Part shown: positions 26,503-43,282 of the stretch, in pieces | Layout: the number at the start of each line of letters is the position of its first letter | How positions within the stretch are numbered: position 1 is the stretch's first letter | Assembly (NCBI GenBank): GCA_902627615.1 | Contig: CACOJW010000001.1 | Location: 4,907-68,906 of the forward strand | Origin: an uncultured marine group III euryarchaeote | Lineage (GTDB): Archaea; Thermoplasmatota; Poseidoniia; MGIII; CG-Epi1 | DNA length: 64,000 nucleotides | Reading direction: 5' to 3' | Notes under the pieces: model-generated | What the model saw: the letters and a program-made list of their open reading frames with translations, nothing else | Databases searched by the model: none | What the model was told of the DNA's origin: nothing | Translations under genes and position numbers: made by a program

Positions 26503-26676
26503 ATGATTGGTACCACCGAGGCATTGATTATTGGAGGAATTGTCGTTCTTCTTTTCGGAGCTAAAAAGCTACCAGAACTGGCTAAAAGTATGGGTCAATC
26601 AAAAGCCGCTTTCAATGAGGGTCTGAAGGAAGGGCCGTCCTTAGAAGAAGATGAGGACAAGGATGACACCGACTGA
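26503..26676 (+). CDS. tatA: Twin-arginine translocase subunit TatA/E (57 aa; absent from the supplied ORF track)
   Basis: My own translation is MIGTTEALIIGGIVVLLFGAKKLPELAKSMGQSKAAFNEGLKEGPSLEEDEDKDDTD*. It has the canonical TatA TM, the hinge FGxxKLPE, an amphipathic helix and an acidic tail. It overlaps the next ORF in another frame. Confidence 0.85.
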   Translation: MIGTTEALIIGGIVVLLFGAKKLPELAKSMGQSKAAFNEGLKEGPSLEEDEDKDDTD

Positions 26677-27907
26677 AAAATATTACAGAATTATAATTGG
26701 ATTGATACGAGAGAATCTTCTATTATTTTTTATTTCTATAGCTTTAGCTTTATACATAGATTACAAAGATTTTTTCGGGAAAAATTCATTAGAGATATAT
26801 TATGTCGGAGTTACATTTGTAATTTTATTTGGTATTCTCGTAACTATACAAAAATATCGTAACCCCTTGCAATATTCACCCAGATTTGTTCTGTTTGTTA
26901 AAGATAGGAATGATTCCATGATTAAGATGAAACCATTTTTGGATCCTTGGGTGATTAAATTAGGACTAGTAAATCCCAAAGAATTAGTTAATGTAAGATA
27001 CAGTATGTATCCGGATTTAGATCTTGGCTTAGATTTAGATCCTAATTCTGGAGTTATTACTGGCTACCCCATGGAAGTTGGGAATCATGCATCAGAAATA
27101 AAGATGAGATTCTTAGGAGGTTCTTATTCAACAAAAGTTAGAGTAGAAGTAGTAGATACGCTTAAGGAAAAAATGATTCACCAGAGAGATGAATTTGCGC
27201 CACCTAGAACTGTTGCACAGCTATTGTTACGTGAGGAAGATTTACTAAAAAGAGAACAAGATTTAGACTATGACATGTCTAAGAGGCAAGAAGCCTTGGA
27301 AGAAGAATACAAGTCTAAGGAACTGAGTTTGCAAGAATTAATAGAAATTGAGAAAGGAAACTTTACAAAGCAATTAGCAGAAATTAAGAAAGCATATGAG
27401 GAAAAACTCAATCAAAAAGATTCTAAAATATCTAGTATCAATAAAGAAATGGATACTAAGCTAAAGCAGCTTGAGGATGAAAGTAATCAGAAGATAGATA
27501 AGTTAGAAGCTGAAATGATACAGGCTTTACAGGATAAAGAGAGAGAATTTGTAGAATTTGAAAAGGAATCTAAACAAAGATTAGAAGAAAAAGAAAAAGA
27601 ATTAGAAAGTAAATATAGTGAAGAAAAAACTATAGACGATTCTGCTGAAAATGAAGACATTGGTGAAGGGGCAACTGTAGACAAAGGGCCGGAGGAAGTA
27701 AAAGTAGAGTCTTCAGAAGAAGAAAATGTCGAGAATTATGAAGAAAGTGTAGACAAAGACGTTAATTCAGAAGAATCTGCTGAAGAGGAGGAATACGATT
27801 ACGTTTCTATGACAAAAGCAGAACTTGTTGTATTAGCAAAGAAGCGGGGCTTGGCAGTTTCTGGAACCAAGAAAAAATTAATATCTAGGTTAGAAAGCCG
27901 CGATTAG
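26651..27907 (+). CDS. 2-TM membrane protein with Ig-like (He_PIG-type) motif, long coiled coil, acidic region and C-terminal SAP/Rho_N-like domain
   Basis: 418 aa. Two TMs are flanked by basic residues, which predicts a cytoplasmic tail. The tail has LDLDPNSGVITGYPMEVGNH, a K/E-rich coiled coil and the C-terminal MTKAELVVLAKKRGLAVSGTKKKLISRLES (27809-27904). The start may be the ATG at 26663. Confidence 0.65.
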   Translation: MRTRMTPTEKYYRIIIGLIRENLLLFFISIALALYIDYKDFFGKNSLEIYYVGVTFVILFGILVTIQKYRNPLQYSPRFVLFVKDRNDSMIKMKPFLDPWVIKLGLVNPKELVNVRYSMYPDLDLGLDLDPNSGVITGYPMEVGNHASEIKMRFLGGSYSTKVRVEVVDTLKEKMIHQRDEFAPPRTVAQLLLREEDLLKREQDLDYDMSKRQEALEEEYKSKELSLQELIEIEKGNFTKQLAEIKKAYEEKLNQKDSKISSINKEMDTKLKQLEDESNQKIDKLEAEMIQALQDKEREFVEFEKESKQRLEEKEKELESKYSEEKTIDDSAENEDIGEGATVDKGPEEVKVESSEEENVENYEESVDKDVNSEESAEEEEYDYVSMTKAELVVLAKKRGLAVSGTKKKLISRLESRD

Positions 27908-27940
27908 CATTTTATAGACACTTTCGGTCCCGAAAAAGTT

Positions 27941-30900
27941 ATGTTTTCTAAACGCATAATTTCAATGCTAGTCGTATTGAGTTTCATATCTCAATCGCTT
28001 GTCGTAGTAGACACAGATTCCTACTCATCAGTAGTCGTTGAAGACTCCTCAATTTTAGAAGAATTGTCTGAGCAAGATGGGGCTAGAGGTGGTAATGGAA
28101 TAGAATTAGTTTGGGATAATTCTGTTGGTTTTTCTCATCCAGATTCTATAGCTTCAATGGGAGATTACTTGCTTTATCATGATGTGATGGCAGGGTGTGA
28201 TAACGAGAACACAGGTTGTGGGACTGAACTTTTCCGCTCAGATGGAACGGCAGAGGGGACTGGTCCGGTCAAAGATATCTGGCCTGGTGAAACTAGCAGC
28301 GGATTAGGCGGAATAACCAATGTTAACGGTGTAGCTTATTTCCGTGCAGAAGATGGAACCAACGGAGATGAATTATGGAGATCTGACGGCACAGAAAATG
28401 GGACTTATATGGTCAAGGATATCTGGCCTGGTGATAACTCTAGCGATCCAGGTTATTTCACGAAACTGGGAAATGAGGTTTTATTCGTAGCTGATGATGG
28501 CGTTCATGGTAGAGAATTATGGAAAAGTGACGGCACTGCAGAAGGTACTGTTCTCGTCAAAGACATTGACGTCAATGATGAAGGTTATGACATAGAAGGT
28601 CAGTTTACACATCATCAGGATCTTCTTGGTGAATCAAGTACTCTCTTTAAACATGGAAATATTATCTATTTTAAAGGAGATAATGGTACTTCAGGCCATG
28701 AGTTGTGGAGAAGTGATGGAACTACTGATGGAACATATCTTGTCAAGGAAATTAGAGCAGGCGACATTGGAGGGATTCAAGGGCATTTTGAATCCTTTGG
28801 CGACCATTTTTATTTTCCAGCAAATGATAACACCGGCAAAGGTACTGAGCTGTGGAGAAGTGATGGTACAGAAGAAGGCACTGTTTTATTTAAAGAAATA
28901 TATTCAGGTTGGCGAAGCAGTCTCAGTTCACCCGGGAGGTTTCTAGCAGTAGGAGACACTCTTTTCTTCCATGCAGCAGATGGAACTGAGGAAGGGCAAT
29001 ATGATTACAATTTATGGAAAACTGACGGTACGGAAGAAGGTACCGTTAAAGTCAGCGATTCTGTAATAGTTGATAATAGCCATTTTCCAGCAGCAGTTGG
29101 CGATATTCTCTACTTTATGTCATCCAATAAAATGGAGAATGGTACTGAGTTGTGGAGGAGTGACGGAACCCAAAATGGAACTTTTATGATTAAGGATCTT
29201 AGGGATGGTGGTAGTCCACACAGTGGCTGCTGTGGATCTTACCCTAGGCTTGTGCCTACTGGAGACACTCTCTATTTTGAAGGTTGGAATATTACAGCTC
29301 ACGCATGGGAACTTTATCAGTCAGATGGAACTCCAGAGGGCACTTTCCAAGTAGAAGACTCGAATAACGTTTTAAGGAATAATCCCCTTACTAGCGATTT
29401 TACGTACATGGGTAATTCTTTATTCTTTAGAGGATACTGTGAATATCCTCAATGCTCAAGTTATTCGCTTTTCAAAATAGGAAATATAACTCCATTAAGT
29501 ACTCCAGGTTCAAAACCATCTTACTCAGTATACGAAAATGAAGCTATAGAACCTATTACTTTCGACTATTTAGAAGCTTACAGAGAAGATGCAGCCTACA
29601 AAGGTTCAGGAAACACTTCTGTAATTACACCATACCCTTTCACATCATCTGAGGATCATGTTGTAGTTAATGATATTCTCTTCTTTAGAGCAACCACTGA
29701 TGAGTATGGTGATGCATTGTGGAAAACTGATGGTACTGCGGAGGGAGTAGAATTAGTCAAAGACATAAATCCAGGTTCCTACGCCGAGATACACCACGGC
29801 CTTACAAGATTCAAGGATTCAATATTGTTTAGTGCCAATGACGGTACGCACGGAGAAGAATTATGGATTAGTGACGGAACTGAAAATGGTACCTTTATGC
29901 TTAAGGATATGGATGAGGGTGGCGAAGACAGTGACAGTGACCCTTGGGGTTTCTTAGATGCAGGTGACGTTGCTTACTTTTCAAGTTCTGATGATTCTGA
30001 GGATAGAGAACTTTGGAAGACAGATGGAACTACCAATGGAACAGTTCGAGTTAAGGACATTGTTTCAGATGGAAGTTCTTACCCAAATAGGCTAACTTTG
30101 TTTGGAGATGAGGTCTTTTTTACAGTTGGTGATCAAGTAAATTCGAATCAACTATGGAAAACAGATGGAACTGAGGAAGGGACAATACGAGTATCAGGTG
30201 TAGGCAGCGTAACAGAATTAATTGTAATGGGAGATACCTTGTATTTCACCGGATCAGGTACATCGTGTGGAGGTAGAGAATTATGGAAAACAGATGGTAC
30301 AAGTGATGGAACTGTTTGTGTTAAGGACATTAGGCCAGGCAGTACCTCCAGTGATCTAGATACATTTACTGTAGCCGGAGGTACTTTGTTCTTTAGAGCT
30401 AACGATGGAACTCACGGAAATGAATTATGGAAAAGTGATGGTACAGAAGATGGCACAGTTTTAGTTAAGGATATTTGCTCAGTACCAGGTTCTGTATCCA
30501 ATCGAATAGCAAGTCTTGGTAACATAGTTTATTTCGGAGCAAATGATGGCAGTATTGGAGATGAATTATGGAGGAGTGATGGAACTGAAGACGGAACTTA
30601 TCTCGTTAAAGACATTTATCCTGGTTATGGATCTAGTAATCCACAACAAATGACTCCAATTGGAGATCGTTTATTTTTCACAGCAGATGACGGTGAAACA
30701 GGCGACGAGGTCTGGATAAGTGATGGAACTGAATCTGGCACAGTACTGGTAGCCAATGTCAATCAAAATGAGTATAACTCAAACCCCGTAGAGTATGTGA
30801 AGCTCGGCAATCTCATTGTTTTTGCAGCGCATCTAGGCACTCTGCGTCTCGTATCTTACGATCCTACAGATATTTTGTATCATTCAAATGAAGGTATGCA

Positions 30901-33900
30901 TTGGTCCATTTCACCTAGTTTACCAGAAGGTTTGAGCTTAGACTCAAACACGGGAAAAATCACTGGAATTCCAACAGAGGTAATTGATTGGACAGATTAT
31001 ACAGTAACTCTTACAGCTTCAAATCCTGAAACAGGTTCTTACTTTTACAACGGAGACGGATCAACGAGTCTTCTGAAAGATATAAGGCCAGGAGACTGGG
31101 GCTCAAATGCTCCATTATTTCCTGTAGTTATGAACGGTATTGCCTATTTCGGAGCTAGCGATGGAACCAACGGGCAGGAATTGTGGAGAACAGATGGTAC
31201 CGAAGATGGAACCTACATGGTTAAGGATATTTATTCTGGCTCTAGTGCAGGATTTAGGAGCGATTTCAACACTAGGATGATTGCTTTTAATGATAATGTA
31301 TTTTTTTGGGGAAACAATGGAACTACAGGCGTTGAATTGTGGAAAACTGATGGTACAGCAGAAGGTACCGTTTTGGTTAAAGAGTTAACCGAAGGTTCAG
31401 GAGATACGTATGCTAGTGGAACTTTTACTATATTTAATGACGAATTATTTTTCATAGCCAAATCACCAGATTTCAATAAATACGAGATATGGAAAACAGA
31501 CGGAACTGAGGAAGGTACAGTTCAACTAACTGATATTCATGAAAACGATGGTGGCGTAATGGGCCCTCTTGTTGAAGTAAATGGCAAACTTTACTTTTCA
31601 GCTGGGGATCGTAACGAATATGGCTCTGAATTGTGGGTAACTGATGGTACCGAAAGCGGTACTGAAATGGTTGTTAACTTAAATGATAACGTTTCAAATA
31701 ATGGCAACTCGATGGTTTCTCGCTTATTTGGAGATGGAGATTTAATTTACTTTGCAGCAGATCCTGTTGGAAATTCGGATGGAAATGGTTATGAACCTTG
31801 GGTATATGATACAACAGCCCCAGTATCCTCGACTAATCCTCAGATGCTCATGGATGTTTATACTGGTCAAAATAATGGAGTTTCGGGCACACATTCTCCG
31901 GGCTTTACCAAAGCAGGTGATTCAGTTATTTTCTTTGCCCAGCAAAATGGATTTAGTAATCTTGACTTGTTTGTTACCGATGGAACTCCAGATGGTACGT
32001 CTTTAATTGTTGACTTTGAAACCGGTATTGATCCTGGTATCTTTAAAGGAAGTATAACTTTTAACGGTGAAGCTTACTTTGCAGCCGACATTCCCGCACC
32101 TAATGAATACAATTGTCCAAGTGACGCCCTCTGGAAGACAGATGGGACTGCCGATGGAACTGTAGTCGTTGCAAGCTGTATTTCTACAGACGGCAGTAGT
32201 ACTCAGTTCATTGAAACTTCGAATCAACTTTGGAGTGTTGTAGGCGACACACTCTTTTTCAGGGCTAAAGAATACCTTGAAGCTCCTGGTGATCCTTACA
32301 GCGTATTGTGGCGAACAGATGGAATACCAAACGGTTCAGGGACTTATCCGGTGGACTTAAGTTATTCAAATGAAAGATGTCAGCTAATGATAGATAACAA
32401 CAATCTTTTTGTGCTTAACAACAAAATTTACACAGGACAGAGAGAGATGTGTTCTACAAGTACAGATAATGATTACTATAACGGTACAGAGATTCGAGTT
32501 TACGATCCTACGAATATAACGTTCGGAACGCCTCTAGAATATACTTTTGATTTCAAATTGCAAGTTTTAGAACAATTATTCCCAATATTCCCAAGTGAGG
32601 ACAGTGCTGATCTTGCCATAGATGAGCCTATGGTGAACATCACCTTCCAGTATGATTTGAAGTCTGCAGGTACATTGGTTAACCAAAATATTGCGTTAGC
32701 TGCTCGCTCAACCTGTGCAATAGTAGAGAATGGAACAGTCGCCTGTTGGGGACATGGTGTTAGCAATACTCTAGGGAACGGCGTAGCTGCAAATTCTGGT
32801 ACTCCAATTTTAACGGCATCTATGCCAGATAATCGGTCTGTTGTAGCAATAGATGCAGGCATGCTCCATGGATGTGCTCTCTTAGATAATGGCTCAGTCG
32901 CTTGTTGGGGTGGCGATAATGATTATGGTGAAATGGGTGATGGAGATACAGCAGTGCATACAGTACCCGAACTTACTAACATAATAGGAACGGAACTTTA
33001 CGCGACCTCAATCTCAGTAGCTTATACTGGCGCCTGTGTAATACTTGATAACGGTTCAGTTTCTTGTTGGGGAGATAATCGATGGGGTCAAATCGGAGAT
33101 AATACCACAATAAATCGGTTCTCACCTACTCAAACTTTCCCGTTTGCAGATGGTAAAAAAGCAGTGAAGATTACATCAGGTCATAGACATCATTGTGCAC
33201 TGCTTGATGATGGAACAGTCTCATGTTGGGGTTGGAATGCTGAAGGACAACTTGGAGACAACACGACTAATTCATCGTATGTGCCTATACCTACCCACCC
33301 GCTTGGCGGGCCAGCTATTGCTATTTCCAGTAATCAAGACCATACCTGTGCAGTTCTTGAAAATGGTTCAGTAGTATGTTGGGGTAGGAATGATCACGGA
33401 CAAGTTGGAATTGGATCTAGCAACCCAGATAAGGTTCTCGTTCCTACGGCGATTAATTCCGATATCTTAGATGGCAAATCAGCTATTGCTGTATCTACTG
33501 GTGATGACCATACTTGTGCAATACTTGATGATAATTCGGTAAAGTGTTGGGGAAGAAATAATGCAAAACAGCTTGGTAATGGTGGTGATTTTGGTGGTGA
33601 TAAGGCCAAAATTGCTATTGAGAGTAACGGCGATCACACTTGCGTTCTGATAGAGGATGGTTCAATTTACTGTTGGGGCCGAAATAGTCACGGTCAAATC
33701 GGTGATGGAGAGGGTCCGTGTGGTTCTAGTGACAGTTGTAGTAGCGCACCAGTACAAGTTGATACATCGTATTCTTTCTTAACAGAGGATAATTCATTGA
33801 TGAACAGTATCGTTAATGTCACCGGTGCAACCTGTTCAATTTCACCAGACTTGCCTGATGGCTTGACTATCGCTCAAGGCACGTGTACTATCAGCGGAAC

Positions 33901-36900
33901 TCCCCTCGAGGAAATACCAAGTACAACATATGTAGTAAGTGCTGAAATTGATGGCAATACTTACACTACCAGAGTTAGTCTTTCAACTTATTACCGAGAT
34001 TCTGATGGCGATGGCTATCCAGATTACTTAGATGATTTCCCAGATGATGATACTGAATGGTTAGATACAGATGGAGATGGAACTGGCAATAATGCAGATA
34101 CAGATGATGATGGTGATGGTTTAACCGATGTTCAGGAACAAAATTCAGACCCAGCTACAGAACCATTAGATCCAGATACAGATGATGATGGCTACTGTGA
34201 TGGTCCCGTTTCAGTCACTATCGATGATGTTCTCATATGTGAAGCAGGCCCAGATGCTTTCCCGACAAATCCAGATGAGTGGAATGATAACGATGGGGAT
34301 GGGATCGGAGACAATGAAGATCCTGATGATGATAATGACCAGATTAGTGATGTTGATGAACTAGCATCCGATCCAGCTTCAGATCCATTAGATGGCTGTT
34401 CTCCTGATCAGAATTCAACTGCTTGTGATATAGATAATGATGGATTACCAAAGGGTGAAGAAATCGTAATAGGTACTAACGTAACCAATCCAGATACAGA
34501 TGGCGATGGATATTGTGATGGCCCTCTAACTGTAATTGGAGTTTGTATCGGAGGAGATGATTTCCCACTAGATGCTGGAGCCCACAAAGATACAGACGGC
34601 GATGGCATGCCAGACAATCTAACAGGTCCTTCAACCTCTGAACCAGCACTTGTAGAAGATCCAGATGACGATAATGATGGTCTTACTGATATTCAAGAAG
34701 ATGCAAATGGTAATGGAACGTTTGATGCAGGCGAAACTAATTCATTAGATCCAGATACGGATGACGATGGTTACTGTGACGGTCCCGTTTCAGTTACAAT
34801 TAACGGTGTTTTCATTTGTGAGGCAGGCCCTGATGCTTTCCCATTAGATCCTTCTGAATGGTTAGATACAGATGGAGATGAAATTGGCAATAATGAAGAT
34901 CCAGATGACGATGGTGACGGTTTGAATGATACATTAGAAGATGTAAATGGAAATGGAATTGTTGACGCAGGTGACACTGATCCTTTGAAGGTAGATACAG
35001 ATGGAGATGGCTTCTGTGATGGGCCAGTAACTATTGTAGATGTCTGTGAAGCAATCGATGCTTTCCCAACAGACGAAACAGAATGGTTCGATACAGATGG
35101 CGACGGCATTGGTGATAATTCAGATCCAGATGTTGATGGAGATGGAGTTGATAATGAGCAAGATGATTTCCCAGATGACGCTTCAGCAAGTAAAGATACA
35201 GACGGCGACGGAATGCCCGACACAATTACAGGCAATTCAACATCAGATCCAGCTCTAGTAGAAGACCTTGATGATGATAATGATGGTTTAACAGATATTG
35301 AAGAAGATACAAACGGTAATGGAACAGCTGACGCTGGTGAAACAGATTCATTGAATCCTGATACAGATGGTGATGGTTATTGTGATGGGCCAGTAACTAT
35401 CGTAGATGTTTGTGTTGCAGTCGATGCTTTCCCATTAGATTCTAGTGAATGGTTAGACACTGACGGAGATGGAATTGGTAATGAAGCAGATCCTGATGAT
35501 GATGGCGACGGTTTGAACGATACCGAAGAAATTGCACTTGGTTCAAGTCCGCTACTCAAGGATACAGATGACGATGGCATTCCAGATAATTGGGATCCTA
35601 GCCCAGTTGATCCAGATGGTGACTATGATGGCGACGGAATTCTTGATAGAGATGAATATAATCCAAATTCAACTACAGGTAACCCAGCAGATTCAGATGG
35701 TGACGGTGTAAATGATATGCTTCAAGGAGTTGCATCTACTAACACCTCTTCGTCAGATGAAAGAAACTGGACTGAATTGTGCTGTTGGGCATTGTTATTA
35801 CTCTTACTTCTTTTGATTCCATTATTGAAGAGGCAATACGACAACTCATTGGTATACGATCCTAATCATATAGAATATACTATCAATGATGACGATGCTA
35901 AAATCCGAATGGTTCCTTCATTACATGAATACACAAAGAATTACAGAAGTTACATGAAGTATGAGGATCTAAGAAGAGTTACTTATGGAATATCAGGAAA
36001 TTTAGTAGAAGGTTTAGATATAGATTCAAAGACGGGAGTAATTTCAGGACATCCAAAGAAAGTTGGATTGTATACGTATGAAGTAATTATGAAGCATTCT
36101 GATGGAAAATTCAAAGGTGAAGTTTCGATTAACGTCATAGATAAGAGCGAAGAAAAACCAGAGGAAGAAGAATCAGAATCTGCAGCAATAGTTAACCCTG
36201 AACCCGAGAATACAAAATCCAAGCCTAAATTTGTTGGAGGGACAGGAACTGAGATGGATCCGTTTGTTCTATCTCCAGCTAAAGGCCTCGAACCAGGTGA
36301 AGAAATTTTATCTAAACAAGTTTTGACAATATCTGGATTAAATTCTGGTGGAGTGGTTAATGCTAAAGATTTGAATTCAAAGGACAATGGCAAGAGGTTC
36401 TCTGTAGTGTCTGAAATTGATGACTTAGGCAGTCAAACTTCATTGGTCGCAGATGAAGATGGTAAAATTAAGTTCAGAGTGAATTTCAAAGACGATGAGC
36501 CTAGTACCGATGGTGCAGATTATGAAGCATTAATGAAGTTAGGAACGGCCTCGGTCTACGTTACATGGGCTGTAGAAGTTCTAAAGGAGGAATCCGAACC
36601 AGAACCTGAACCGGAACCAGAACCTGAGCCAGAGCCCGAACCAGAACCGGAACCTGAGCCTAAACTCGTAGTTACTGAACAAGAGGCTAAGAAGCAGGAA
36701 GAAATCGAAAGAGTCAAAGCTAGAGCTGAAACAATTGATTTCAAGGTAATCGGTGCTGCGACTCAAAGTACGTTGGCTAACGAAGTTGAGGCAGGCGCAT
36801 CAGAAGTTGAACTAGCTGATGCTTCAGAGTTTGAAAATGGAGGTACTGCAACTATTACTGATGCTGACGGAAGTGAGACATTTACTTGGAAAGGTAAAGA

Positions 36901-37474
36901 CAATAACCAGTTAACGGGCGTTTCAGGAATTACTAGGACATTTGTTGCAGCGTCAATAGTTGTATCAAAAGATGACCTGCAGGTAATCAAGGGAATAGGT
37001 CCTTTCATCGAAGAAAAGTTGAATGCCTTAGGAATCTATACTTACAGGCAAATAGCCAATATGACGCCAGAATTGGAAGATCAAGTCAATGAGGCTATTG
37101 AATTTTTCCCAGGCCGAGTTAAGAGAGACCAATGGGTCGCTCAAGCCAAGATATTGATTGGTGAAGATGCAGAGATTGATGAAAAGGCCCTCAAGAAAGC
37201 TGAAGACTTAGACAGAGTAGCAGCTAAGGCTGAAGGTATTGATTTTGGAGTTCTTGGTATTGCTAGCGCTTCTGACAAAGACAATCTGCAAGAGATTAAG
37301 GGAATAGGTCCTTTCATCGAAGAAAAGCTCAACGCGTTAGGTATCTTCAAGTTCTCACAAATTGCTAAGATGACTTCTGAGATTGAAGAAGAGGTAAATG
37401 TTGCAATTGAGTTCTTCCCAGGAAGAGTCAAGCGCGACGAATGGGTTAAACAGGCAGCTGAATTAGCCAAGTAA
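27941..37474 (+). CDS. Giant (3177 aa) mosaic surface protein: ELWxxDGT repeats, RCC1 propeller, thrombospondin type-3 repeats, TM, cytoplasmic tail with (EP)11 and two H3TH (COG3743-like) domains
   Basis: It has a signal peptide and about 23 copies (my count) of (E/D)LW(R/K)(S/T)DGTxxGTxxVKDIxPG. Seven RCC1 blades (CWGxNxxGQxGDG) lie at ~32690-33720. DxDGDG/DTDDDGYCDGP calcium-binding repeats lie at ~33990-35720. The TM is ELCCWALLLLLLLLIPLL (35774-35830), followed by KRQ. The tail has a He_PIG-like motif, (EP)11 and two copies of IKGIGPFIEEKLNALGI...FPGRVKRDxWVxQA. Confidence 0.85.
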   Translation: MFSKRIISMLVVLSFISQSLVVVDTDSYSSVVVEDSSILEELSEQDGARGGNGIELVWDNSVGFSHPDSIASMGDYLLYHDVMAGCDNENTGCGTELFRSDGTAEGTGPVKDIWPGETSSGLGGITNVNGVAYFRAEDGTNGDELWRSDGTENGTYMVKDIWPGDNSSDPGYFTKLGNEVLFVADDGVHGRELWKSDGTAEGTVLVKDIDVNDEGYDIEGQFTHHQDLLGESSTLFKHGNIIYFKGDNGTSGHELWRSDGTTDGTYLVKEIRAGDIGGIQGHFESFGDHFYFPANDNTGKGTELWRSDGTEEGTVLFKEIYSGWRSSLSSPGRFLAVGDTLFFHAADGTEEGQYDYNLWKTDGTEEGTVKVSDSVIVDNSHFPAAVGDILYFMSSNKMENGTELWRSDGTQNGTFMIKDLRDGGSPHSGCCGSYPRLVPTGDTLYFEGWNITAHAWELYQSDGTPEGTFQVEDSNNVLRNNPLTSDFTYMGNSLFFRGYCEYPQCSSYSLFKIGNITPLSTPGSKPSYSVYENEAIEPITFDYLEAYREDAAYKGSGNTSVITPYPFTSSEDHVVVNDILFFRATTDEYGDALWKTDGTAEGVELVKDINPGSYAEIHHGLTRFKDSILFSANDGTHGEELWISDGTENGTFMLKDMDEGGEDSDSDPWGFLDAGDVAYFSSSDDSEDRELWKTDGTTNGTVRVKDIVSDGSSYPNRLTLFGDEVFFTVGDQVNSNQLWKTDGTEEGTIRVSGVGSVTELIVMGDTLYFTGSGTSCGGRELWKTDGTSDGTVCVKDIRPGSTSSDLDTFTVAGGTLFFRANDGTHGNELWKSDGTEDGTVLVKDICSVPGSVSNRIASLGNIVYFGANDGSIGDELWRSDGTEDGTYLVKDIYPGYGSSNPQQMTPIGDRLFFTADDGETGDEVWISDGTESGTVLVANVNQNEYNSNPVEYVKLGNLIVFAAHLGTLRLVSYDPTDILYHSNEGMHWSISPSLPEGLSLDSNTGKITGIPTEVIDWTDYTVTLTASNPETGSYFYNGDGSTSLLKDIRPGDWGSNAPLFPVVMNGIAYFGASDGTNGQELWRTDGTEDGTYMVKDIYSGSSAGFRSDFNTRMIAFNDNVFFWGNNGTTGVELWKTDGTAEGTVLVKELTEGSGDTYASGTFTIFNDELFFIAKSPDFNKYEIWKTDGTEEGTVQLTDIHENDGGVMGPLVEVNGKLYFSAGDRNEYGSELWVTDGTESGTEMVVNLNDNVSNNGNSMVSRLFGDGDLIYFAADPVGNSDGNGYEPWVYDTTAPVSSTNPQMLMDVYTGQNNGVSGTHSPGFTKAGDSVIFFAQQNGFSNLDLFVTDGTPDGTSLIVDFETGIDPGIFKGSITFNGEAYFAADIPAPNEYNCPSDALWKTDGTADGTVVVASCISTDGSSTQFIETSNQLWSVVGDTLFFRAKEYLEAPGDPYSVLWRTDGIPNGSGTYPVDLSYSNERCQLMIDNNNLFVLNNKIYTGQREMCSTSTDNDYYNGTEIRVYDPTNITFGTPLEYTFDFKLQVLEQLFPIFPSEDSADLAIDEPMVNITFQYDLKSAGTLVNQNIALAARSTCAIVENGTVACWGHGVSNTLGNGVAANSGTPILTASMPDNRSVVAIDAGMLHGCALLDNGSVACWGGDNDYGEMGDGDTAVHTVPELTNIIGTELYATSISVAYTGACVILDNGSVSCWGDNRWGQIGDNTTINRFSPTQTFPFADGKKAVKITSGHRHHCALLDDGTVSCWGWNAEGQLGDNTTNSSYVPIPTHPLGGPAIAISSNQDHTCAVLENGSVVCWGRNDHGQVGIGSSNPDKVLVPTAINSDILDGKSAIAVSTGDDHTCAILDDNSVKCWGRNNAKQLGNGGDFGGDKAKIAIESNGDHTCVLIEDGSIYCWGRNSHGQIGDGEGPCGSSDSCSSAPVQVDTSYSFLTEDNSLMNSIVNVTGATCSISPDLPDGLTIAQGTCTISGTPLEEIPSTTYVVSAEIDGNTYTTRVSLSTYYRDSDGDGYPDYLDDFPDDDTEWLDTDGDGTGNNADTDDDGDGLTDVQEQNSDPATEPLDPDTDDDGYCDGPVSVTIDDVLICEAGPDAFPTNPDEWNDNDGDGIGDNEDPDDDNDQISDVDELASDPASDPLDGCSPDQNSTACDIDNDGLPKGEEIVIGTNVTNPDTDGDGYCDGPLTVIGVCIGGDDFPLDAGAHKDTDGDGMPDNLTGPSTSEPALVEDPDDDNDGLTDIQEDANGNGTFDAGETNSLDPDTDDDGYCDGPVSVTINGVFICEAGPDAFPLDPSEWLDTDGDEIGNNEDPDDDGDGLNDTLEDVNGNGIVDAGDTDPLKVDTDGDGFCDGPVTIVDVCEAIDAFPTDETEWFDTDGDGIGDNSDPDVDGDGVDNEQDDFPDDASASKDTDGDGMPDTITGNSTSDPALVEDLDDDNDGLTDIEEDTNGNGTADAGETDSLNPDTDGDGYCDGPVTIVDVCVAVDAFPLDSSEWLDTDGDGIGNEADPDDDGDGLNDTEEIALGSSPLLKDTDDDGIPDNWDPSPVDPDGDYDGDGILDRDEYNPNSTTGNPADSDGDGVNDMLQGVASTNTSSSDERNWTELCCWALLLLLLLLIPLLKRQYDNSLVYDPNHIEYTINDDDAKIRMVPSLHEYTKNYRSYMKYEDLRRVTYGISGNLVEGLDIDSKTGVISGHPKKVGLYTYEVIMKHSDGKFKGEVSINVIDKSEEKPEEEESESAAIVNPEPENTKSKPKFVGGTGTEMDPFVLSPAKGLEPGEEILSKQVLTISGLNSGGVVNAKDLNSKDNGKRFSVVSEIDDLGSQTSLVADEDGKIKFRVNFKDDEPSTDGADYEALMKLGTASVYVTWAVEVLKEESEPEPEPEPEPEPEPEPEPEPEPKLVVTEQEAKKQEEIERVKARAETIDFKVIGAATQSTLANEVEAGASEVELADASEFENGGTATITDADGSETFTWKGKDNNQLTGVSGITRTFVAASIVVSKDDLQVIKGIGPFIEEKLNALGIYTYRQIANMTPELEDQVNEAIEFFPGRVKRDQWVAQAKILIGEDAEIDEKALKKAEDLDRVAAKAEGIDFGVLGIASASDKDNLQEIKGIGPFIEEKLNALGIFKFSQIAKMTSEIEEEVNVAIEFFPGRVKRDEWVKQAAELAK
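28220..32340 (+). repeat. Coding tandem array of ELWxxDGT beta-propeller-type repeats
   Basis: The W(R/K)(S/T)DGT(x)2GT motif recurs every ~45-60 codons. The array is interrupted once by an Ig-like motif (SPSLPEGLSLDSNTGKITGIPT). Confidence 0.8.
33990..35720 (+). repeat. Coding array of thrombospondin type-3-like Ca-binding repeats with a recurring DGYCDGP...C...DAFP module (5 copies)
   Basis: DTD(G/D)DG(Y/F)CDGP(V/L)(S/T)V...DAFP(L/T)D...W.DTDGDGIG(D/N)N.DPDDDGDG recurs. Two ~190-codon super-repeats are visible (about 34170 and 34750). Confidence 0.8.
36596..36661 (+). repeat. (GAR CCN)11 hexanucleotide repeat encoding (Glu-Pro)11
   Basis: It reads gaacca gaacct gaaccg ... gagcct, 11 units by my count. 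It lies inside the cytoplasmic tail of the giant protein. Confidence 0.95.
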
Positions 37475-37941
37475 TGACAAATTACTGGTTAATGAAAAGT
37501 GAGCCACATGTTTACTCGTTTGATGAGTTAATCAAAGACGGTAGCACTTATTGGGACGGAGTCCGTAATTATCAAGCTAGAAATTTCATGCGAGATAAGA
37601 TGCGAATAGGGGATTTAGTTCTGTATTATCATTCCAATACTAAACCGCCTCATATTGCTGGTGTTGCAAGGATTTGCAAGGAATCTTATCCAGACTTTAC
37701 GCAGTTTGATAAGAAATCTAAGTACTATGACCCTAAAGCCACAGAAGAAGTCCCTAGATGGTTTCTTGTTGATATGGAGCCTGTAACCAAGTTTGATGAA
37801 ATTATATCCTTAGATCAATTGAAAGAAAATGATGCTTTAGAAGGAATGCTTGTCATTAAGCGAGGTCAGAGATTATCCGTACAACCAGTTGAAAAGCATC
37901 ATTTTGATGAAGTTTGTAGCATGGCGAATGCAAAATTATAA
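37474..37941 (+). CDS. EVE (PUA-like, DUF55/THYN1-like) domain protein
   Basis: 155 aa. NYWLMKSEPHVYSFDELIKDG...WDGVRNYQARNFMRDKMRIGDLVLYYHSN is the typical EVE N-terminus. Its ATG overlaps the TAA of the giant gene by 1 nt (TAATG). A T6 run follows the stop. Confidence 0.85.
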   Translation: MTNYWLMKSEPHVYSFDELIKDGSTYWDGVRNYQARNFMRDKMRIGDLVLYYHSNTKPPHIAGVARICKESYPDFTQFDKKSKYYDPKATEEVPRWFLVDMEPVTKFDEIISLDQLKENDALEGMLVIKRGQRLSVQPVEKHHFDEVCSMANAKL

Positions 37942-38010
37942 TTTTTTACAAAAAATAGTTAAAAAATAGCGCGAAAAACAGCGTTTTCGCTCATCATATT
38001 TAAGTGTATC

Positions 38011-38027
38011 CGAAAGGCTCTATATAC
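38011..38027 (+). promoter_or_regulatory. Candidate archaeal promoter (purine-rich BRE-like stretch + TATATA) for the downstream ncRNA
   Basis: CGAAAGGCTC-TATATA (TATA at 38021-38026). The expected start ~25 nt downstream (about 38048-38052) falls just before the first structured element. Confidence 0.4.
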
Positions 38028-38047
38028 CCCCCTAGTCTGTTGTAAGT

Positions 38048-38455
38048 TCCCGATGTTTGGGAAACATGACCTTCGGGTTATGAAGCCAACAAACAAAGGG
38101 AAAGCATAGAAGGAAACAACTTAGGAAACTAAGGGGAAACGATCTTTGAATGCAAGAAGGAAACAACCAGGACACTGGGGGAAACAATCGAGCGGGATAA
38201 GAAGGAAACAACTTAGATCATAAGGGGAAACAATCTAAGCACGCAAGCCAGGAAACGAGTTGGATGCAACGGGAAACAAAACTTGTACGCCGGAAAAGGA
38301 ACATGACCTTCGGGTCATGAACCAATTCCACCCCCGGGCAGAGGGATGTCATCCAACGCAAGAAGGTCGACGGAACTCTGCCCACTTTATTTTGGGCGGA
38401 TGTTAGTCTGATACACTCTATTTATGTGGAACGGGTGTTTTGTTCCTATTTTTTG
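38048..38455 (+). ncRNA. Candidate novel structured ncRNA with a GGAAAC-motif array (ends approximate)
   Basis: No ORF >=60 aa occurs on either strand in 37942-38541. The locus is G- and purine-rich against AT-rich flanks. Twin hairpins with C(UUCG)G tetraloops lie at 38065-38082 and 38302-38319. Four modules of GGAAAC-RA-[4-5 bp hairpin]-GGGAAAC have covarying stems. An 8-bp stem pairs 38336-38343 with 38376-38383. A U-rich tract lies at 38386-38393, and a hairpin plus T6 at 38428-38454. Confidence 0.55.
38108..38292 (+). repeat. Four degenerate ~46-nt tandem units inside the ncRNA candidate
   Basis: Units start at 38108, 38155, 38200 and ~38246. Units 1-3 begin with AGAAGGAAACAAC. Each unit contains GGAAAC, a hairpin and GGGAAAC. 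Confidence 0.8.
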
Positions 38456-38541
38456 TCTTATTAAGAATAGAGCTCAGTCTTTCTGTTAGTTCACCTTTTA
38501 TGGCCTCAACCATGGGCGTTTTACGATTCATTTTACAGTAC

Positions 38542-39663: not shown

Positions 39664-40610
39664 TTGATAAACAATACATACAAGAAAGAAAAGAATTCTT
39701 TTATGTGTTTTTTGCGATAAGTACCATATTTGTAATTTATGCATTATTGTATATTTTGAATGGCTGGGAATGGACTGGTACGAGTCCTAGTGGTTACTGT
39801 GAAAGAGTCAGAGAAACTTGGATTCGTGAACCTACGAATACGGTTTCAAATTTAGCATTTGTATTTGTTGGAATGTATATTCTTTGGCAAGCGCAATATG
39901 ATCCAGTTGAAGGTAAACCTTCACTTTCCACAAGAAGTTGGTTCCTCATCCTATACGGAATTTCATGTGTCGCCGTTGGTATGGGCAGTTTTGCTATGCA
40001 CGGTTTCAATACTGGATGGGGGGGTTGGCTAGATGTCACAGGAATGATGATGTACATTTCAATGCCCGTTTTCTATAATTTTTCAAGATTCCTTAGATGG
40101 TCCGAAGAAGAATTTGTTACTTATTACTTAGGAGCAAACTTCGTTTTTGCAATCCTATTATGGCAATACAGTCTTCTTACTTTCCTGTGGGGTGCACTAA
40201 TTGGTATTTGGTTATCTCAGGAGTTAGCACTGAAATACCAGAAGCAGCCTCATGTAATTTTTCTAGTTCCTACTTCGATAATTATGTTTTTGTATCTTTA
40301 CACTTCGCCAAACAAGACACCAATAGATTTTTTCATAGATGAGATTGAAGGAGTTTTAGTTTGGGCAGCTCTAGCTTATTTCTTGTATAGTATTGAAGAT
40401 ATTAAATTGGAAAGAACTCACACGCCTTATTTCTGGGCAGGCTTTGCAGCTTATGCTTTAGCTACTATAATTTGGCAGCCAAGTAAAACAGACGGCGTTC
40501 TATGTGACCCTGATTCAATTGCTCAAGGTCATGCATTATGGCACTTACTTGGGGCAGTTTCAATGTGGTGTTTTTACAAATATTTTAGAACAGAAATTGA
40601 TAGTTATTGA
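39660..40610 (+). CDS. Alkaline ceramidase/PAQR-like 7-TM putative hydrolase
   Basis: 316 aa with ~7 TMs. YCERVRETWIREPTNTVSNLAFV matches the YCE...EPxNTxSN signature. His motifs are present (FAMHGF, HALWHLLG). The TTG start overlaps the upstream stop (TTGA). Confidence 0.6.
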   Translation: MIDKQYIQERKEFFYVFFAISTIFVIYALLYILNGWEWTGTSPSGYCERVRETWIREPTNTVSNLAFVFVGMYILWQAQYDPVEGKPSLSTRSWFLILYGISCVAVGMGSFAMHGFNTGWGGWLDVTGMMMYISMPVFYNFSRFLRWSEEEFVTYYLGANFVFAILLWQYSLLTFLWGALIGIWLSQELALKYQKQPHVIFLVPTSIIMFLYLYTSPNKTPIDFFIDEIEGVLVWAALAYFLYSIEDIKLERTHTPYFWAGFAAYALATIIWQPSKTDGVLCDPDSIAQGHALWHLLGAVSMWCFYKYFRTEIDSY

Positions 40611-43282
40611 CTTTCGTAAGTGATAACCCACATACGTAACTTAATTTCAGGCAAGTAACCATCAGCATCAGTTACGCTTGGATCATATTCCTCGCCTTGG
40701 TATAATCCTCTGTAGCTTAGTCGGTTTTCTCCGATACTTGATTCATCAGTAATATCTATTCGGTTATATTCAACATCTTGCCCTGGGCACCATCCAGCCC
40801 TTCCATAGACCCAGGTTCCATATTGGTTGGCTGAAACACCCTCATGCACTCTGTTGTAGCAACCGTAAGGTGTTCCGCCATTAGGATGTTCTAGTAGATC
40901 TAAGGTGTTTCCATTAATTGTAAACTCGTGTTGATGGTTACAGAATTCGGCACAATTTTCATCAGTACTACTGTGCCCGTGTCCAGTAAAAAATGTAACA
41001 ATCTCAACTTTTTCAGTATTATCAGTGACATTGTAGCTAAATGGATTTTCACTTCCAAATATGTTGTTATAGTCTAAGTTAAATTTTCTTGTTGCGCCAT
41101 GAAGATATTCGGCACCTACTGGAGTATATTCTTTATTTTCATTCCAGAAAAATAATTTGATTGTTAATCCGTAAGCATTTGGTTGCCAATAATTAAATTC
41201 ATTAATATTTTCATTTTTTAGTACACCTAACATCGGCGTTACATCGGAAATATATCGTCCCTCACGATTGTATGCAGTGATATATCTTCCTACTTCTGCT
41301 TTCCATACTCTATTCCATTTACCTTTACAAGAAGGGGAACTGTCTTCTCCTCCGTCGTCCCATCTATGTCCAGCATTTTCACAAAGCTCTTGAGAGGTAA
41401 ATTCAGGAAGAATTTGATTTATGCAATCGTTGTAAAGGCTAAATTCTATCAATGAGCATTCAGATTCGTATGCATTTAGGTATCCAATAAAGTCCCATTC
41501 ATTACAACCTTTATGGTCTGCACACGCCTCATAAGTATAAATTGCAAATGAGTCGAAATCTTCCATATTTTCAGGTAATTCTACATTCCGAATATTTGTG
41601 CCGCCACCCCAGCCACCACCATGCGTGTAGCTATCTCCTGCATTCCATTCAAGTAATGTTACAGATTCTCCTTTTATACAATTTTTAGGCATATATTGTC
41701 GTTCATGGCACGGGATGCTGGAATGGTATTCCATAGCAGCTAGTTCTCTTTCAAGGCCGAATTCAAAATTAAGATAGGTTGGTTCATTTGCGATGAAGTG
41801 GAATCTGTACCAACTAAAATTTTGATTAAAATTTAAATCCCAAAAGCTTCCTACTTCTTGCCATCTTTGTAATTGGTCTATGCAAAACCAAGCAGGCGAT
41901 TCTTTTGCAATAATAAAGTCTGCAATACTTCCTTCTAAGAAGTTTGCATCCATTGCAATGTAATGGACTCTGTTAGACCAATGTTCTCGGTCTTCTTCAT
42001 TCATGGCAGTCAGTGCAGCATTTACTCGGCCGGACATGTAGGAAACGTCCCCCATCCAGCCCCCATCGCGATATGATCCAAAAAAGTAATGAACATTGTC
42101 TGGAGACTTTTCAAACATTAAGCTTAATTCAGTCGCTTGTCCAACTGGATTAGCAGAATTCCAAGTTATTACACTATCGGGATTGGTAGGATTGTATATG
42201 ACGAAAACATAAGTATCTTTCCCGCTCCATTCTTGTTTAAATTTCCAATCATTTGTGAAATTTAAATTTTCATCAATTGGCTCAGGTATTGTGAAGTCTC
42301 CCGAAGTACCCATGTAATTAGTTGCGTAAGGCCCTCCATTCCAAGGAATAGGTTTTTCAAAGTAAGAACAGCCTTGTTCATCTACTTCTTCTCCATAAAG
42401 GAAAGGCCCATCTGAGCACTCATCATTGTCACCACATAAACCATCTCCATCAGAATCGCCAGTACTATCATCTCCCCAGCACAGGTCCACGGAATCGGGA
42501 ATACCATCACCATCAGAGTCTCTTTGTGATGCTGAACAGCCTTCATCATTTGCAATTTCGTTTAGTGGAGTTTCTTCACACGAATCACTTCTGTCATTAA
42601 TTCCGTCGTTATCATCATCCTTGTCTTCACTGTCATCTTTGCAACCGTCCATGTCCCAATCATAATTTTGGTTTCCAGCTTCCCAATCTGCAGCACCTCT
42701 GGGGCATAAATCAACAGTATTATTCATCCCATCATTATCGATATCATCATCAACTCCGTCAGGAATTCCGTCGCGATCGTAGTCGAGAGGTCTTGATGAG
42801 GGGCTATTTGGATTAGTTCCAAGTAATAATTCAATGGTATTATTGTATCCGTCTCCATCAATGTCATCGTCTTCGATTAACGAAGTATTACAGTTTTCTT
42901 TGATTGAGTCAGGCTTTCCATCATCATCCATATCATTTGTTGCACATTCATCATTTGGGAAATCATCTGAATTATCTCCAGTTCCATCATCATCAGAATC
43001 TTTCCATTCGTTTGGATTGTTAGGAAACTTATCAATGTTATCATTGTAACCATCTCCATCCGAATCATCATTCTGATTCTGGCTTCCATCATTCACATTA
43101 TTGTTGTTTTCGCCATCATCTTGGTAGTAGTCATTATTGTAATCATCATTGTCATTATAGACGATTTCATCATTAGTTTCTTCTAAGCACCCGCTGCTAG
43201 CTAAAATAGAACTCAAAAATAGAAATGCCATGATTATTGGCGTGATTTTACTTGAGCTCATGTATTTTCTATAATATACCAA
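40604..43282 (-). CDS. Secreted thrombospondin-type-3-repeat protein with PNGase F-like (peptide-N-glycanase) domains
   Basis: 892 aa with a signal peptide ending ...LASSGC (lipobox-like); the likely start is the Met at 43261. The N-terminal region has DxDxDG repeats. The C-terminal part aligns by eye to Flavobacterium PNGase F: CNEWDF (vs CDEWDR), GHGHSSTDENCAEFCNHQHEFTINGN (vs GWGH...GCAEWCFRTHTIAINN) and GTWVYGRAGWCPGQDV...RIDI (vs GNWAPDRAGWCPGMAV...RIDV). Confidence 0.7.
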   Translation of the reverse strand: MVYYRKYMSSSKITPIIMAFLFLSSILASSGCLEETNDEIVYNDNDDYNNDYYQDDGENNNNVNDGSQNQNDDSDGDGYNDNIDKFPNNPNEWKDSDDDGTGDNSDDFPNDECATNDMDDDGKPDSIKENCNTSLIEDDDIDGDGYNNTIELLLGTNPNSPSSRPLDYDRDGIPDGVDDDIDNDGMNNTVDLCPRGAADWEAGNQNYDWDMDGCKDDSEDKDDDNDGINDRSDSCEETPLNEIANDEGCSASQRDSDGDGIPDSVDLCWGDDSTGDSDGDGLCGDNDECSDGPFLYGEEVDEQGCSYFEKPIPWNGGPYATNYMGTSGDFTIPEPIDENLNFTNDWKFKQEWSGKDTYVFVIYNPTNPDSVITWNSANPVGQATELSLMFEKSPDNVHYFFGSYRDGGWMGDVSYMSGRVNAALTAMNEEDREHWSNRVHYIAMDANFLEGSIADFIIAKESPAWFCIDQLQRWQEVGSFWDLNFNQNFSWYRFHFIANEPTYLNFEFGLERELAAMEYHSSIPCHERQYMPKNCIKGESVTLLEWNAGDSYTHGGGWGGGTNIRNVELPENMEDFDSFAIYTYEACADHKGCNEWDFIGYLNAYESECSLIEFSLYNDCINQILPEFTSQELCENAGHRWDDGGEDSSPSCKGKWNRVWKAEVGRYITAYNREGRYISDVTPMLGVLKNENINEFNYWQPNAYGLTIKLFFWNENKEYTPVGAEYLHGATRKFNLDYNNIFGSENPFSYNVTDNTEKVEIVTFFTGHGHSSTDENCAEFCNHQHEFTINGNTLDLLEHPNGGTPYGCYNRVHEGVSANQYGTWVYGRAGWCPGQDVEYNRIDITDESSIGENRLSYRGLYQGEEYDPSVTDADGYLPEIKLRMWVITYESQ

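Follow-up and report, generated by a model that had tools for sequence, protein, structure and literature searches.

Modules of nucleic-acid-binding type at the end of long linkers are known from several systems, and these offer the closest comparisons for two consecutive genes in a 64,000-nucleotide stretch of DNA, here called the window (contig CACOJW010000001.1, positions 4,907 to 68,906 of the forward strand, assembly GCA_902627615.1), of an uncultured Marine Group III euryarchaeote. Gene 1 encodes a small membrane protein whose tail ends in a SAP domain while gene 2 encodes a giant surface protein whose tail ends in two helix-hairpin-helix (HhH) modules. One such system is PhaH of Caulobacter crescentus, for which the primary study is reportedly that of Salinas et al. 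2023. The N-terminus of Caulobacter PhaH is described as binding polyhydroxybutyrate (PHB) granules and its C-terminal HhH domain as binding DNA non-specifically, and deletion of phaH as disorganising the granules (available text of PMC13052382). PhaH and gene 2 share a homologous terminal HhH region and a plan in which a linker joins the anchor at one end to a module at the other that binds DNA independently of sequence, this binding being predicted in gene 2. Unlike gene 2, PhaH is anchored to PHB granules by its N-terminus, lacks a membrane helix and an ectodomain and has a single module. When the two genes are set beside the tether class of PhaH, PhaM and PhaF, their anchor end is visible in the sequence as transmembrane (TM) helices and their DNA-binding end would follow from homology.

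The same module ends Urf1/protein-O/protein-3h of the alphaproteobacterial light-harvesting 1-reaction centre (LH1-RC) complexes, which has a U-shaped TM hairpin, cytoplasmic ends, a long flexible linker and a C-terminal HhH domain. In protein-O of Dinoroseobacter shibae a disulfide at the cytoplasmic helix ends places the hairpin termini inside the cell (available text of PMC12079452), and the Urf1 module is said to be unresolved in the structure and its function obscure (available text of PMC12079452 and PMC13066640). The layout of gene 1 is the same as that of Urf1 except that it ends in SAP and has an immunoglobulin-like (Ig-like) domain and a lysine- and glutamate-rich (K/E-rich) spacer, and the two hairpins are without sequence similarity. 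The alphaproteobacterial NuoE (PRK12373), S2 (PRK12311) and L21 (PRK12278) carry the terminal module behind a low-complexity linker; unlike gene 2 these are soluble or peripheral cytoplasmic carriers and not transmembrane surface giants. Heh1/Heh2 and MAN1 are inner-nuclear-membrane proteins with HeH/SAP/LEM domains and a soluble end that contacts chromatin. Like gene 1 they are integral membrane proteins with a SAP/HeH-type end, the likeness being the SAP motif, while gene 1 would lie in the cell membrane.

Giants of Marine Group II share with gene 2 a giant ectodomain, one TM helix, a conserved beta-sandwich, a spacer and one to three terminal HhH modules. They lack the extra juxtamembrane Ig-like domain and the (EP)11 spacer of gene 2 and the SAP-tailed paralogue directly upstream of it. 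The HhH-tailed giant of Marine Group III, with its additional Ig-like domain and this paralogue, is new; titles and abstracts of the literature searched held no description of Marine Group II or III giants with cytoplasmic tails or of HhH modules in Poseidoniales, and the listed literature on COG3743, to which type the module belongs, held nothing on its function. We propose, with a probability of about 0.45, that the tails of both proteins are sequence-independent nucleic-acid anchors, most likely tethers to the nucleoid.

Domain architecture of the two membrane proteins

Gene 1 and gene 2 are followed by a third gene on the same strand and the three are arranged as follows.

26651..27907, + strand: gene 1, SAP-tailed small membrane protein, open reading frame (ORF) of 418 residues
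27941..37474, + strand: gene 2, giant surface protein, ORF of 3,177 residues
37474..37941, + strand: gene 3, EVE-domain protein, ORF of 155 residues

A first-pass annotation made from the sequence alone had read these consecutive genes as carriers of SAP, two HhH and EVE domains, and all of these passed hidden Markov model (HMM) tests. Within gene 1 the following features were recognised.

26690..26848, + strand: TM hairpin, residues 14-32 and 48-66 (Kyte-Doolittle scan)
26849..27175, + strand: juxtamembrane Ig-like domain (hhalign to the gene 2 tail domain)
27185..27256, + strand: nearly invariant motif, residues 179-202 (invariant columns R179 to E202 in 35 family members)
27257..27790, + strand: K/E-rich proline-free spacer (residues 203-330), then acidic glutamate- and proline-rich (E/P-rich) spacer (residues 331-380) (composition)
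27797..27895, + strand: SAP domain, residues 383-415 (PF02037)

The order in the gene 1 protein was thus TM hairpin, Ig-like domain, conserved motif, K/E-rich spacer, acidic spacer and C-terminal SAP domain and, unlike in gene 2, there was no ectodomain. The predicted SAP domain scored 35.3 bits against the Pfam cut-off of 23.9 (PF02037, E 8.5e-9). The gene 1 family comprised 355 proteins at E<=1e-3, and among the best 120 of these a SAP domain was precomputed in Pfam for 116 and two TM segments were found by hydropathy scan in 108. The acidic spacer before SAP varied in length across the family alignment, and the motif at residues 179-202 is a possible docking site.

Residues 44-174 of gene 1 aligned with residues 2608-2739 of gene 2 (hhalign probability 97.9%, E 3.4e-13), a comparison that is the sole basis of the Ig-like assignment in gene 1, and the domain was also matched in a six-frame search (E 3.6e-13). 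TM2 and the Ig-like domain of gene 1 therefore appear to be a paralogue of the membrane-proximal part of gene 2, which indicates one membrane-proximal scaffold bearing either SAP or HhH, two different end modules of DNA-binding type, at the end of a long spacer. A complex prediction for residues 1-215 of gene 1 with residues 2600-2745 of gene 2 scored 0.00, a result that counts neither way. The features of gene 2 were as follows.

27941..35770, + strand: ectodomain (signal-peptide-like N-terminus, ELWxxDGT, RCC1-like, He_PIG and TSP3-type acidic repeats)
35771..35827, + strand: single TM helix, residues 2611-2629, followed by KRQ (Kyte-Doolittle scan)
35828..36160, + strand: tail domain 1, juxtamembrane Ig-like, residues 2630-2740 (He_PIG match, AlphaFold2 (AF2) model)
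36203..36595, + strand: tail domain 2, conserved PapD/ASH-like beta-sandwich, residues 2755-2885 (alignment, VIA-align)
36596..36949, + strand: (EP)11 run (36596-36661) and acidic helical linker (composition)
36950..37168, + strand: HhH module 1, COG3743 type, residues 3004-3076 (HMM, AF2)
37253..37471, + strand: HhH module 2, residues 3105-3177, at the extreme C-terminus (HMM)

The ectodomain included 22 ELWxxDGT repeats (TIGR04534, 922 bits against a cut-off of 65) together with an RCC1-like domain, He_PIG and TSP3 repeats in Pfam, and the nearest named homologue of the protein was from a Marine Group III euryarchaeote. By its domain content gene 2 appears to be a secreted giant surface protein anchored by one membrane helix. 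The tail after this helix was 548 residues in length. Its first domain passed He_PIG (PF05345) marginally, at 25.7 bits against a cut-off of 24 over residues 51-103 of the tail fragment scanned, and was Ig-like in an AF2 model of the region with a mean predicted local distance difference test score (pLDDT) of 67.9; the model aligned with a Rib domain (9avk_A) at a VIA-align Z of 9.6 (root-mean-square deviation 3.3, 93 residues aligned). An alignment of the second domain over 23 sequences, part of which came from Marine Group II, showed 16 invariant columns, and homologous stretches were present in the Marine Group II giants. This domain aligned with the HYDIN PapD-like domain at Z 7.8 and with CEP192 ASH at Z 7.6, both below the Z of 8 under which the tool grades a match as middling. 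The linker region gave a sub-threshold match to TonB polyproline (30.1 bits against a cut-off of 33).

The HhH modules were sub-threshold when the whole giant was scanned and passed when the module pair was scanned alone (Cdd1 34.5 bits against 25.5 and HHH_5 30.5 against 27, Pfam cut-offs). The module pair matched the C-terminal end of the NCBIfam model for NuoE (PRK12373, positions 322-393, E 5e-40) and the C-terminal ends of those for S2 (PRK12311), L21 (PRK12278) and PhaH (NF045508). In the last case the match was of 77 bits (E 2e-21) at profile positions 166-231 of 234. The HhH module also matched PDB entries 9wqv_a and 8yy9_O (Urf1/protein-O/protein-3h) at E 2e-13 to 2.7e-13. The COG3743-type match covered the C-terminal 65-70 residues or so of NuoE, L21, S2, PhaH and protein-O, and it included the canonical G-I-G hairpin which is invariant in the module. 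Gene 2 was rejected as a whole PhaH, the NF045508 scores being 77 or 48 bits against a cut-off of 250 and confined to C-terminal positions. Among 14 control genomes NF045508 passed its cut-off solely in Caulobacter vibrioides while the genome studied here matched its C-terminal positions only.

In the AF2 model of the module pair (pLDDT 80.3) each module had four helices. The best structural matches by VIA-align, all with Z below 8, were to HhH domains at Z 5-7.1, among them the PolQ HhH region (7.1), the Rad51 N-terminal domain (6.2) and Pol X (5.8), and the module is a candidate for a fold of the (HhH)2 class. A Foldseek search of the two-module model against the PDB returned nothing at E<=1e-3, probably because the dumbbell shape defeats a global comparison. 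The modules were placed at the end of the protein throughout the family. Among the best 120 database homologues of one module the last copy lay no more than 15 residues from the C-terminus in 119, there were two to four copies in each, and a TM-like segment was found in 38 of the 38 with at least 450 residues upstream. At E<=1e-3 the family as a whole came to 9,059 cluster representatives, a single protein having as many as 26 matched stretches, and three proteins of 2,280-3,115 residues (P0254, P0255 and P0256) had 20-26 matched HhH stretches in very long tandem arrays. Elsewhere in the genome of the window (contig C16, L002 1495-2502, - strand) a soluble protein of 335 residues was encoded that combined HEAT repeats and a linker very rich in lysine with a single HhH module of this type, and HhH-module matches lay within open frames of 319-330 residues in at least seven congeners.

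These results agree with much of what the first-pass annotation had claimed, including two TM segments with basic flanks and a C-terminal SAP domain in gene 1 and, in gene 2, a single late TM helix followed by KRQ, a He_PIG-like motif (a marginal pass), an (EP)11 linker and two copies of the COG3743 helix-3-turn-helix (H3TH) module, which the Cdd1, HHH_5 and NCBIfam matches show to have been recognised correctly. The 'FEN-1-like' nuclease name attached to COG3743 does not apply, since only the HhH piece is present, and no nuclease family was among the Pfam or NCBIfam matches of gene 2 or its tail. The duplication of the module had also been called recent on account of one identical run of 30 nucleotides common to both copies. 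The two modules were 71-77% identical in protein and 74% identical in DNA over 170 nucleotides. When the copies were compared with Marine Group II orthologues, copy 1 had 78-85% identity to the penultimate module there, more than the 71% that it had to copy 2 of the same protein, and copy 2 was 77-80% identical to the last module of those orthologues. The duplication is therefore ancient, as copy 1 is closer to its Marine Group II counterpart than to its neighbour.

Orientation of the tails and conservation among relatives

Hydrophobic helices were called by Kyte-Doolittle scan and lysine and arginine (K/R) residues were counted in the flanks of the best 19-residue core. The gene 2 ectodomain contained 43 cysteines and 35 N-x-S/T sequons while the tail contained none and one, respectively. 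In gene 2 homologues with an internal helix (n=52) K/R averaged 0.27 over the 12 residues ahead of the core against 1.71 behind it; the positive-inside rule was followed by 46 of the 52, none was reversed and six were equal. K/R counts in gene 1 were four at the N-terminus, two in the loop and three after TM2, with family means (n=108) of 2.1, 0.58 and 3.1, and both ends of the protein are therefore predicted to be inside the cell. In a congener two ribosomal proteins, eS1 and uL24, were also found to end in an acidic linker followed by SAP, as gene 1 does. A cytoplasmic position is most likely for both tails, as had been claimed, because the signal peptide with a single TM helix, the cysteine and sequon contrast, the K/R bias and the cytoplasmic carriers of the same modules all agree.

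The search set for conservation comprised 24 congeners and 16 genomes outside the genus (two of a sister family and 14 of Marine Group II). The genome of the window is 66.7% complete, the assemblies of the relatives are fragmented with most contigs breaking in the giant gene, and absences among the relatives are weak evidence. At E<1e-60 an orthologue of gene 1 was found in 11 of the congeners, and the 16 other genomes gave none. Gene 1 and the giant gene were adjacent at three of four loci examined out of the 11 (G012, G016 and G009), where the giant gene started some 33-36 nucleotides after gene 1, and the fourth (G023) ended inside gene 1. Tail homologues were found in 19 congeners, in neither sister-family genome and in eight Marine Group II genomes, in three of which (G029, G033 and G039) giant proteins with HhH tails were confirmed. 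The pair of gene 1 and gene 2 and the junction of gene 2 with EVE were both kept within the genus, as the check on the three-gene arrangement had called for. A sigma-70 promoter scan near gene 1, using a model unsuited to archaea, gave six sites against 5.7 expected, and a terminator scan of the same region, likewise unsuited to an archaeon, gave none.

Several further observations were made on these families. The giant gene of congener G012 (contig 27, L020 6381-8633 and up to 6475, - strand) consisted of two overlapping ORFs of 750 and then at least 2,158 residues, a pattern that may reflect a broken gene, a frameshift or a fault in the assembly. SAP matches were found in many congeners by six-frame search. 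The SAP endings behind an acidic linker on eS1 (S3Ae) and uL24 (L26e/L24P) belonged to congener G003 (L032 275-1096 and L035 108-767), and a further SAP match in the genus lay at an S4e gene in a stretch that ended before the end of the gene. Contigs C3 and C4 of the genome studied here (L016 649-1605 and L017 553-1692) encoded two more SAP proteins without membrane helices, one a 318-residue low-complexity lysine-rich protein with a C-terminal SAP domain and the other a 379-residue protein with an N-terminal SAP domain and a DUF7121 region.

The EVE domain of gene 3 (PF01878) was unambiguous at 190.5 bits against 23 (E 1.9e-56), with residues 3-150 covering profile positions 1-145 of 145. The ATG of gene 3 shares one base with the stop of gene 2, so that the domain and the overlap were both borne out, and the gene is probably co-transcribed with gene 2. 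EVE was present in eight of the 24 congeners, in seven of which it lay within 2-6 nucleotides after the tail while in the eighth it lay at a contig start. It was also present in all 14 Marine Group II genomes searched and was never beside the tail gene, being on other contigs or far off, and the tail-bearing giants there were without an adjacent EVE. At all five Marine Group II loci inspected (in G029, G038, G035, G032 and G030; L027-L031) EVE followed an ORF of 980-1,018 residues on the same strand, directly or with an overlap of a few bases; the three of these ORFs that were scanned encoded MMPL/RND-type transporters, and the pairing with EVE is a conserved one. The next ORF after EVE at these loci was of aminotransferase size and proved to be an aminotransferase in the two scanned. 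From this distribution EVE appears to be a widely kept gene of the class whose place beside the giant gene is a feature of the genus. Because the Marine Group II context differs, EVE is probably a neighbour of the two membrane protein genes and not a component of one device with them, as had been supposed.

Three RNA contigs without mismatches covered 35759-36183 in the gene 2 tail at a depth of 3.5-5.5. Other parts of the tail and most of EVE were without RNA contig cover, and RNA libraries can hold DNA. This cover neither shows nor excludes expression or co-transcription of gene 2 and EVE. Over the GAGCCA repeat of the (EP)11 run (36596-36661) RNA contigs reached a depth of up to 327 in one run, which cannot be read as expression because the contigs were repeat-length variants and subject to cross-mapping.

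Candidate function of the tails

In the proposed reading both tails would act as long flexible anchors that bind nucleic acid independently of sequence, most probably chromosomal DNA. The giant would attach through its HhH pair and the small paralogue through SAP, and a physical link would thereby run from the nucleoid to both the surface fibre and the small paralogue, much as storage granules are held to DNA by PhaH in Caulobacter. SAP domains are counted among the nucleic-acid binders. The reading is preferred because of the homology of the module to that of PhaH, the presence of two unrelated end modules on paralogous scaffolds, their tandem terminal placement and their predicted cytoplasmic location. 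The occurrence of SAP and HhH on paralogous scaffolds points to selection for a binding function rather than for one domain, and tandem terminal copies would be suited to avidity for a polymer. The membrane-to-nucleic-acid tether suggested in the first-pass annotation thus stood as regards the modules, the cytoplasmic tails and the gene pair, with the homology to PhaH added in its favour, while the membership of EVE, the recent duplication and the nuclease name fell away.

Several points weigh on the other side. Nucleic-acid binding by the tail modules is predicted from homology and the tail topology from rules of thumb. Protein-binding folds also aligned with the module, namely NusA AR1/AR2 at Z 6.0-6.2 and SAM domains at Z 4-5.3. 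Both modules were net acidic (-4 and -3), the conserved columns were seven basic and seven acidic of 71, a balance that decides nothing, and the strongly acidic spacers before the modules could repel DNA. The module is also carried by NuoE and ribosomal proteins, where a DNA tether is without obvious purpose. In two structural papers its role is described as obscure or left undecided (available text of PMC12079452 and PMC13066640), and Urf1 of Rhodovulum sulfidophilum is reported to lose its module-bearing part by cleavage (available text of PMC13066640).

An account in which the end modules are protein docking or self-association units, which would cluster the giants or dock a cytoskeletal or division partner without involving nucleic acid, draws on the NusA and SAM matches that stand beside those to DNA-binding HhH domains, on the net acidity of the modules and on the resemblance of the conserved tail beta-sandwich and the invariant gene 1 motif to protein-binding sites. 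We consider it unlikely given that PhaH, the sole tested homologue found, is reported to bind DNA (available text of PMC13052382), that SAP, a different fold, ends the paralogous scaffold and that the G-I-G hairpin is invariant. Somewhat less likely again is binding of RNA or ribosomes by the tails, which would retain mRNA or ribosomes engaged in translation at the membrane, close to where the giant is exported. HhH occurs as an addition to bacterial S2 and L21 and SAP as an addition to eS1 and uL24 in a congener, and export of a 3,177-residue protein would be a long co-translational task, but a ribosome-binding module would be redundant on ribosomal proteins and the reported DNA binding by PhaH (available text of PMC13052382) again points elsewhere. 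The analysis does not separate DNA from RNA as the target of the tails.

A three-gene device that includes EVE and, for example, senses modified bases at the membrane would account for the one-nucleotide overlap and for the position of EVE directly after the tail in seven of the eight congeners having it; the separate and differently conserved setting of EVE in Marine Group II makes such a device improbable. HhH and SAP are sequence-independent binders and poor at gene-specific control, which argues against a latent signal, in which regulated proteolysis would free the cytoplasmic part to act on DNA. Urf1 of Rhodovulum sulfidophilum is reported to be cut in the linker between its membrane and module-bearing parts (available text of PMC13066640). 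The window does contain a gene for an M50 site-2-type protease (16095-18167), but at a distance of 10 kb upstream it is not adjacent, and long spacers that end in tandem modules have the look of anchors, so that a signal of this kind seems, if anything, a shade more improbable than the device. ComEA is a membrane-anchored HhH protein acting outside the cytoplasm, and tails placed outside the cell could bind extracellular DNA in a similar manner. The gene 2 tail matched ComEA (TIGR01259) weakly at E 0.076 and was rejected as such, with 13 bits against a cut-off of 152 and with the topology evidence placing it inside. The signal peptide with one TM helix, the tail with no cysteine and one sequon, the positive-inside rule and the carriage of the same modules by ribosomal proteins, NuoE, PhaH and the cytoplasmic end of protein-O make external tails very improbable.

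Neighbouring features and implications for the cell surface

Downstream of EVE and before a flavodoxin-like gene there was a conserved stretch free of ORFs (about 37985-38470, core 38081-38355). No ORF of at least 70 residues was found in the 843 nucleotides after EVE and Rfam gave no match to the region even at E<=1. Some 490 nucleotides were 75-96% identical in the eight congeners having EVE and always lay just 3' of it. A DNA search of the 16 genomes from outside the genus did not find the region, which does not show its absence there. The consensus fold of nine sequences had 97 pairs with 97.1% of cells paired. Compensatory changes were found in 20 pairs against 10.6 +/- 1.9 in shuffled alignments (none of 500 reached 20) and 0-3 with the partners slid, statistics that are flattered as the structure was derived from the same alignment. 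The + strand carried repeated GGAAAC motifs, a TATA-like box and an oligo-T run.

Contigs of four metatranscriptome runs from three studies piled up at 38092-38299. Their depth sums related organisms and they give neither strand nor ends. In two runs of one sample the summed depth was about 1.0-1.2 million where the flanking genes had 0-35, and in the other two it was about 29,000 and 45,000 at 38092-38195 and about 4,900 and 10,200 at 38196-38299. RNase P RNA and signal recognition particle (SRP) RNA were rejected as identities since both were found elsewhere in the genome. The region is a candidate for a highly abundant new structured RNA of Marine Group III, for which there is a precedent in Tan1, described as an abundant 229-nucleotide RNA of unknown function in Marine Group II (available text of PMC5069720).

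Elsewhere in the window a 2,357-residue protein (4343-11416, - strand) had an AglB/STT3 oligosaccharyltransferase N-terminus fused to CarboxypepD_reg, SdrD_B, PEGA and CARDB domains, and an 892-residue protein (40604-43282, - strand) near the glycoprotein-rich surface genes had a peptide-N-glycosidase F C-terminal domain and a TSP3 repeat. The window also encodes an archaeal EMC6.

The giant surface proteins of these archaea are thought to mediate attachment, and we know of nothing on events at the inner membrane side of such giants. If the tails bind the nucleoid, the cell exterior would be linked directly to the chromosome, a design for which no description was found in the literature for any prokaryotic surface protein. 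In its fullest form, which is possible though doubtful, planktonic Marine Group II and III would have a two-part transmembrane linkage, of HhH and SAP, that couples an extracellular giant fibre mechanically to the chromosome. The SAP-tailed paralogue offers a natural control, as two modules on one scaffold are predicted to show the same binding behaviour. If the reading is true, it would supply the missing function of an orphan module that is very widespread and also occurs on NuoE, ribosomal proteins and photosynthetic-complex subunits. The two-part linkage would also be a counterpart in prokaryotes to the membrane-chromatin tethers of eukaryotes (LEM/HeH, LINC), and in these organisms it could hold the fibre in place on a cell without a wall, help to position the nucleoid or segregate it, or convey mechanical signals from attached particles.

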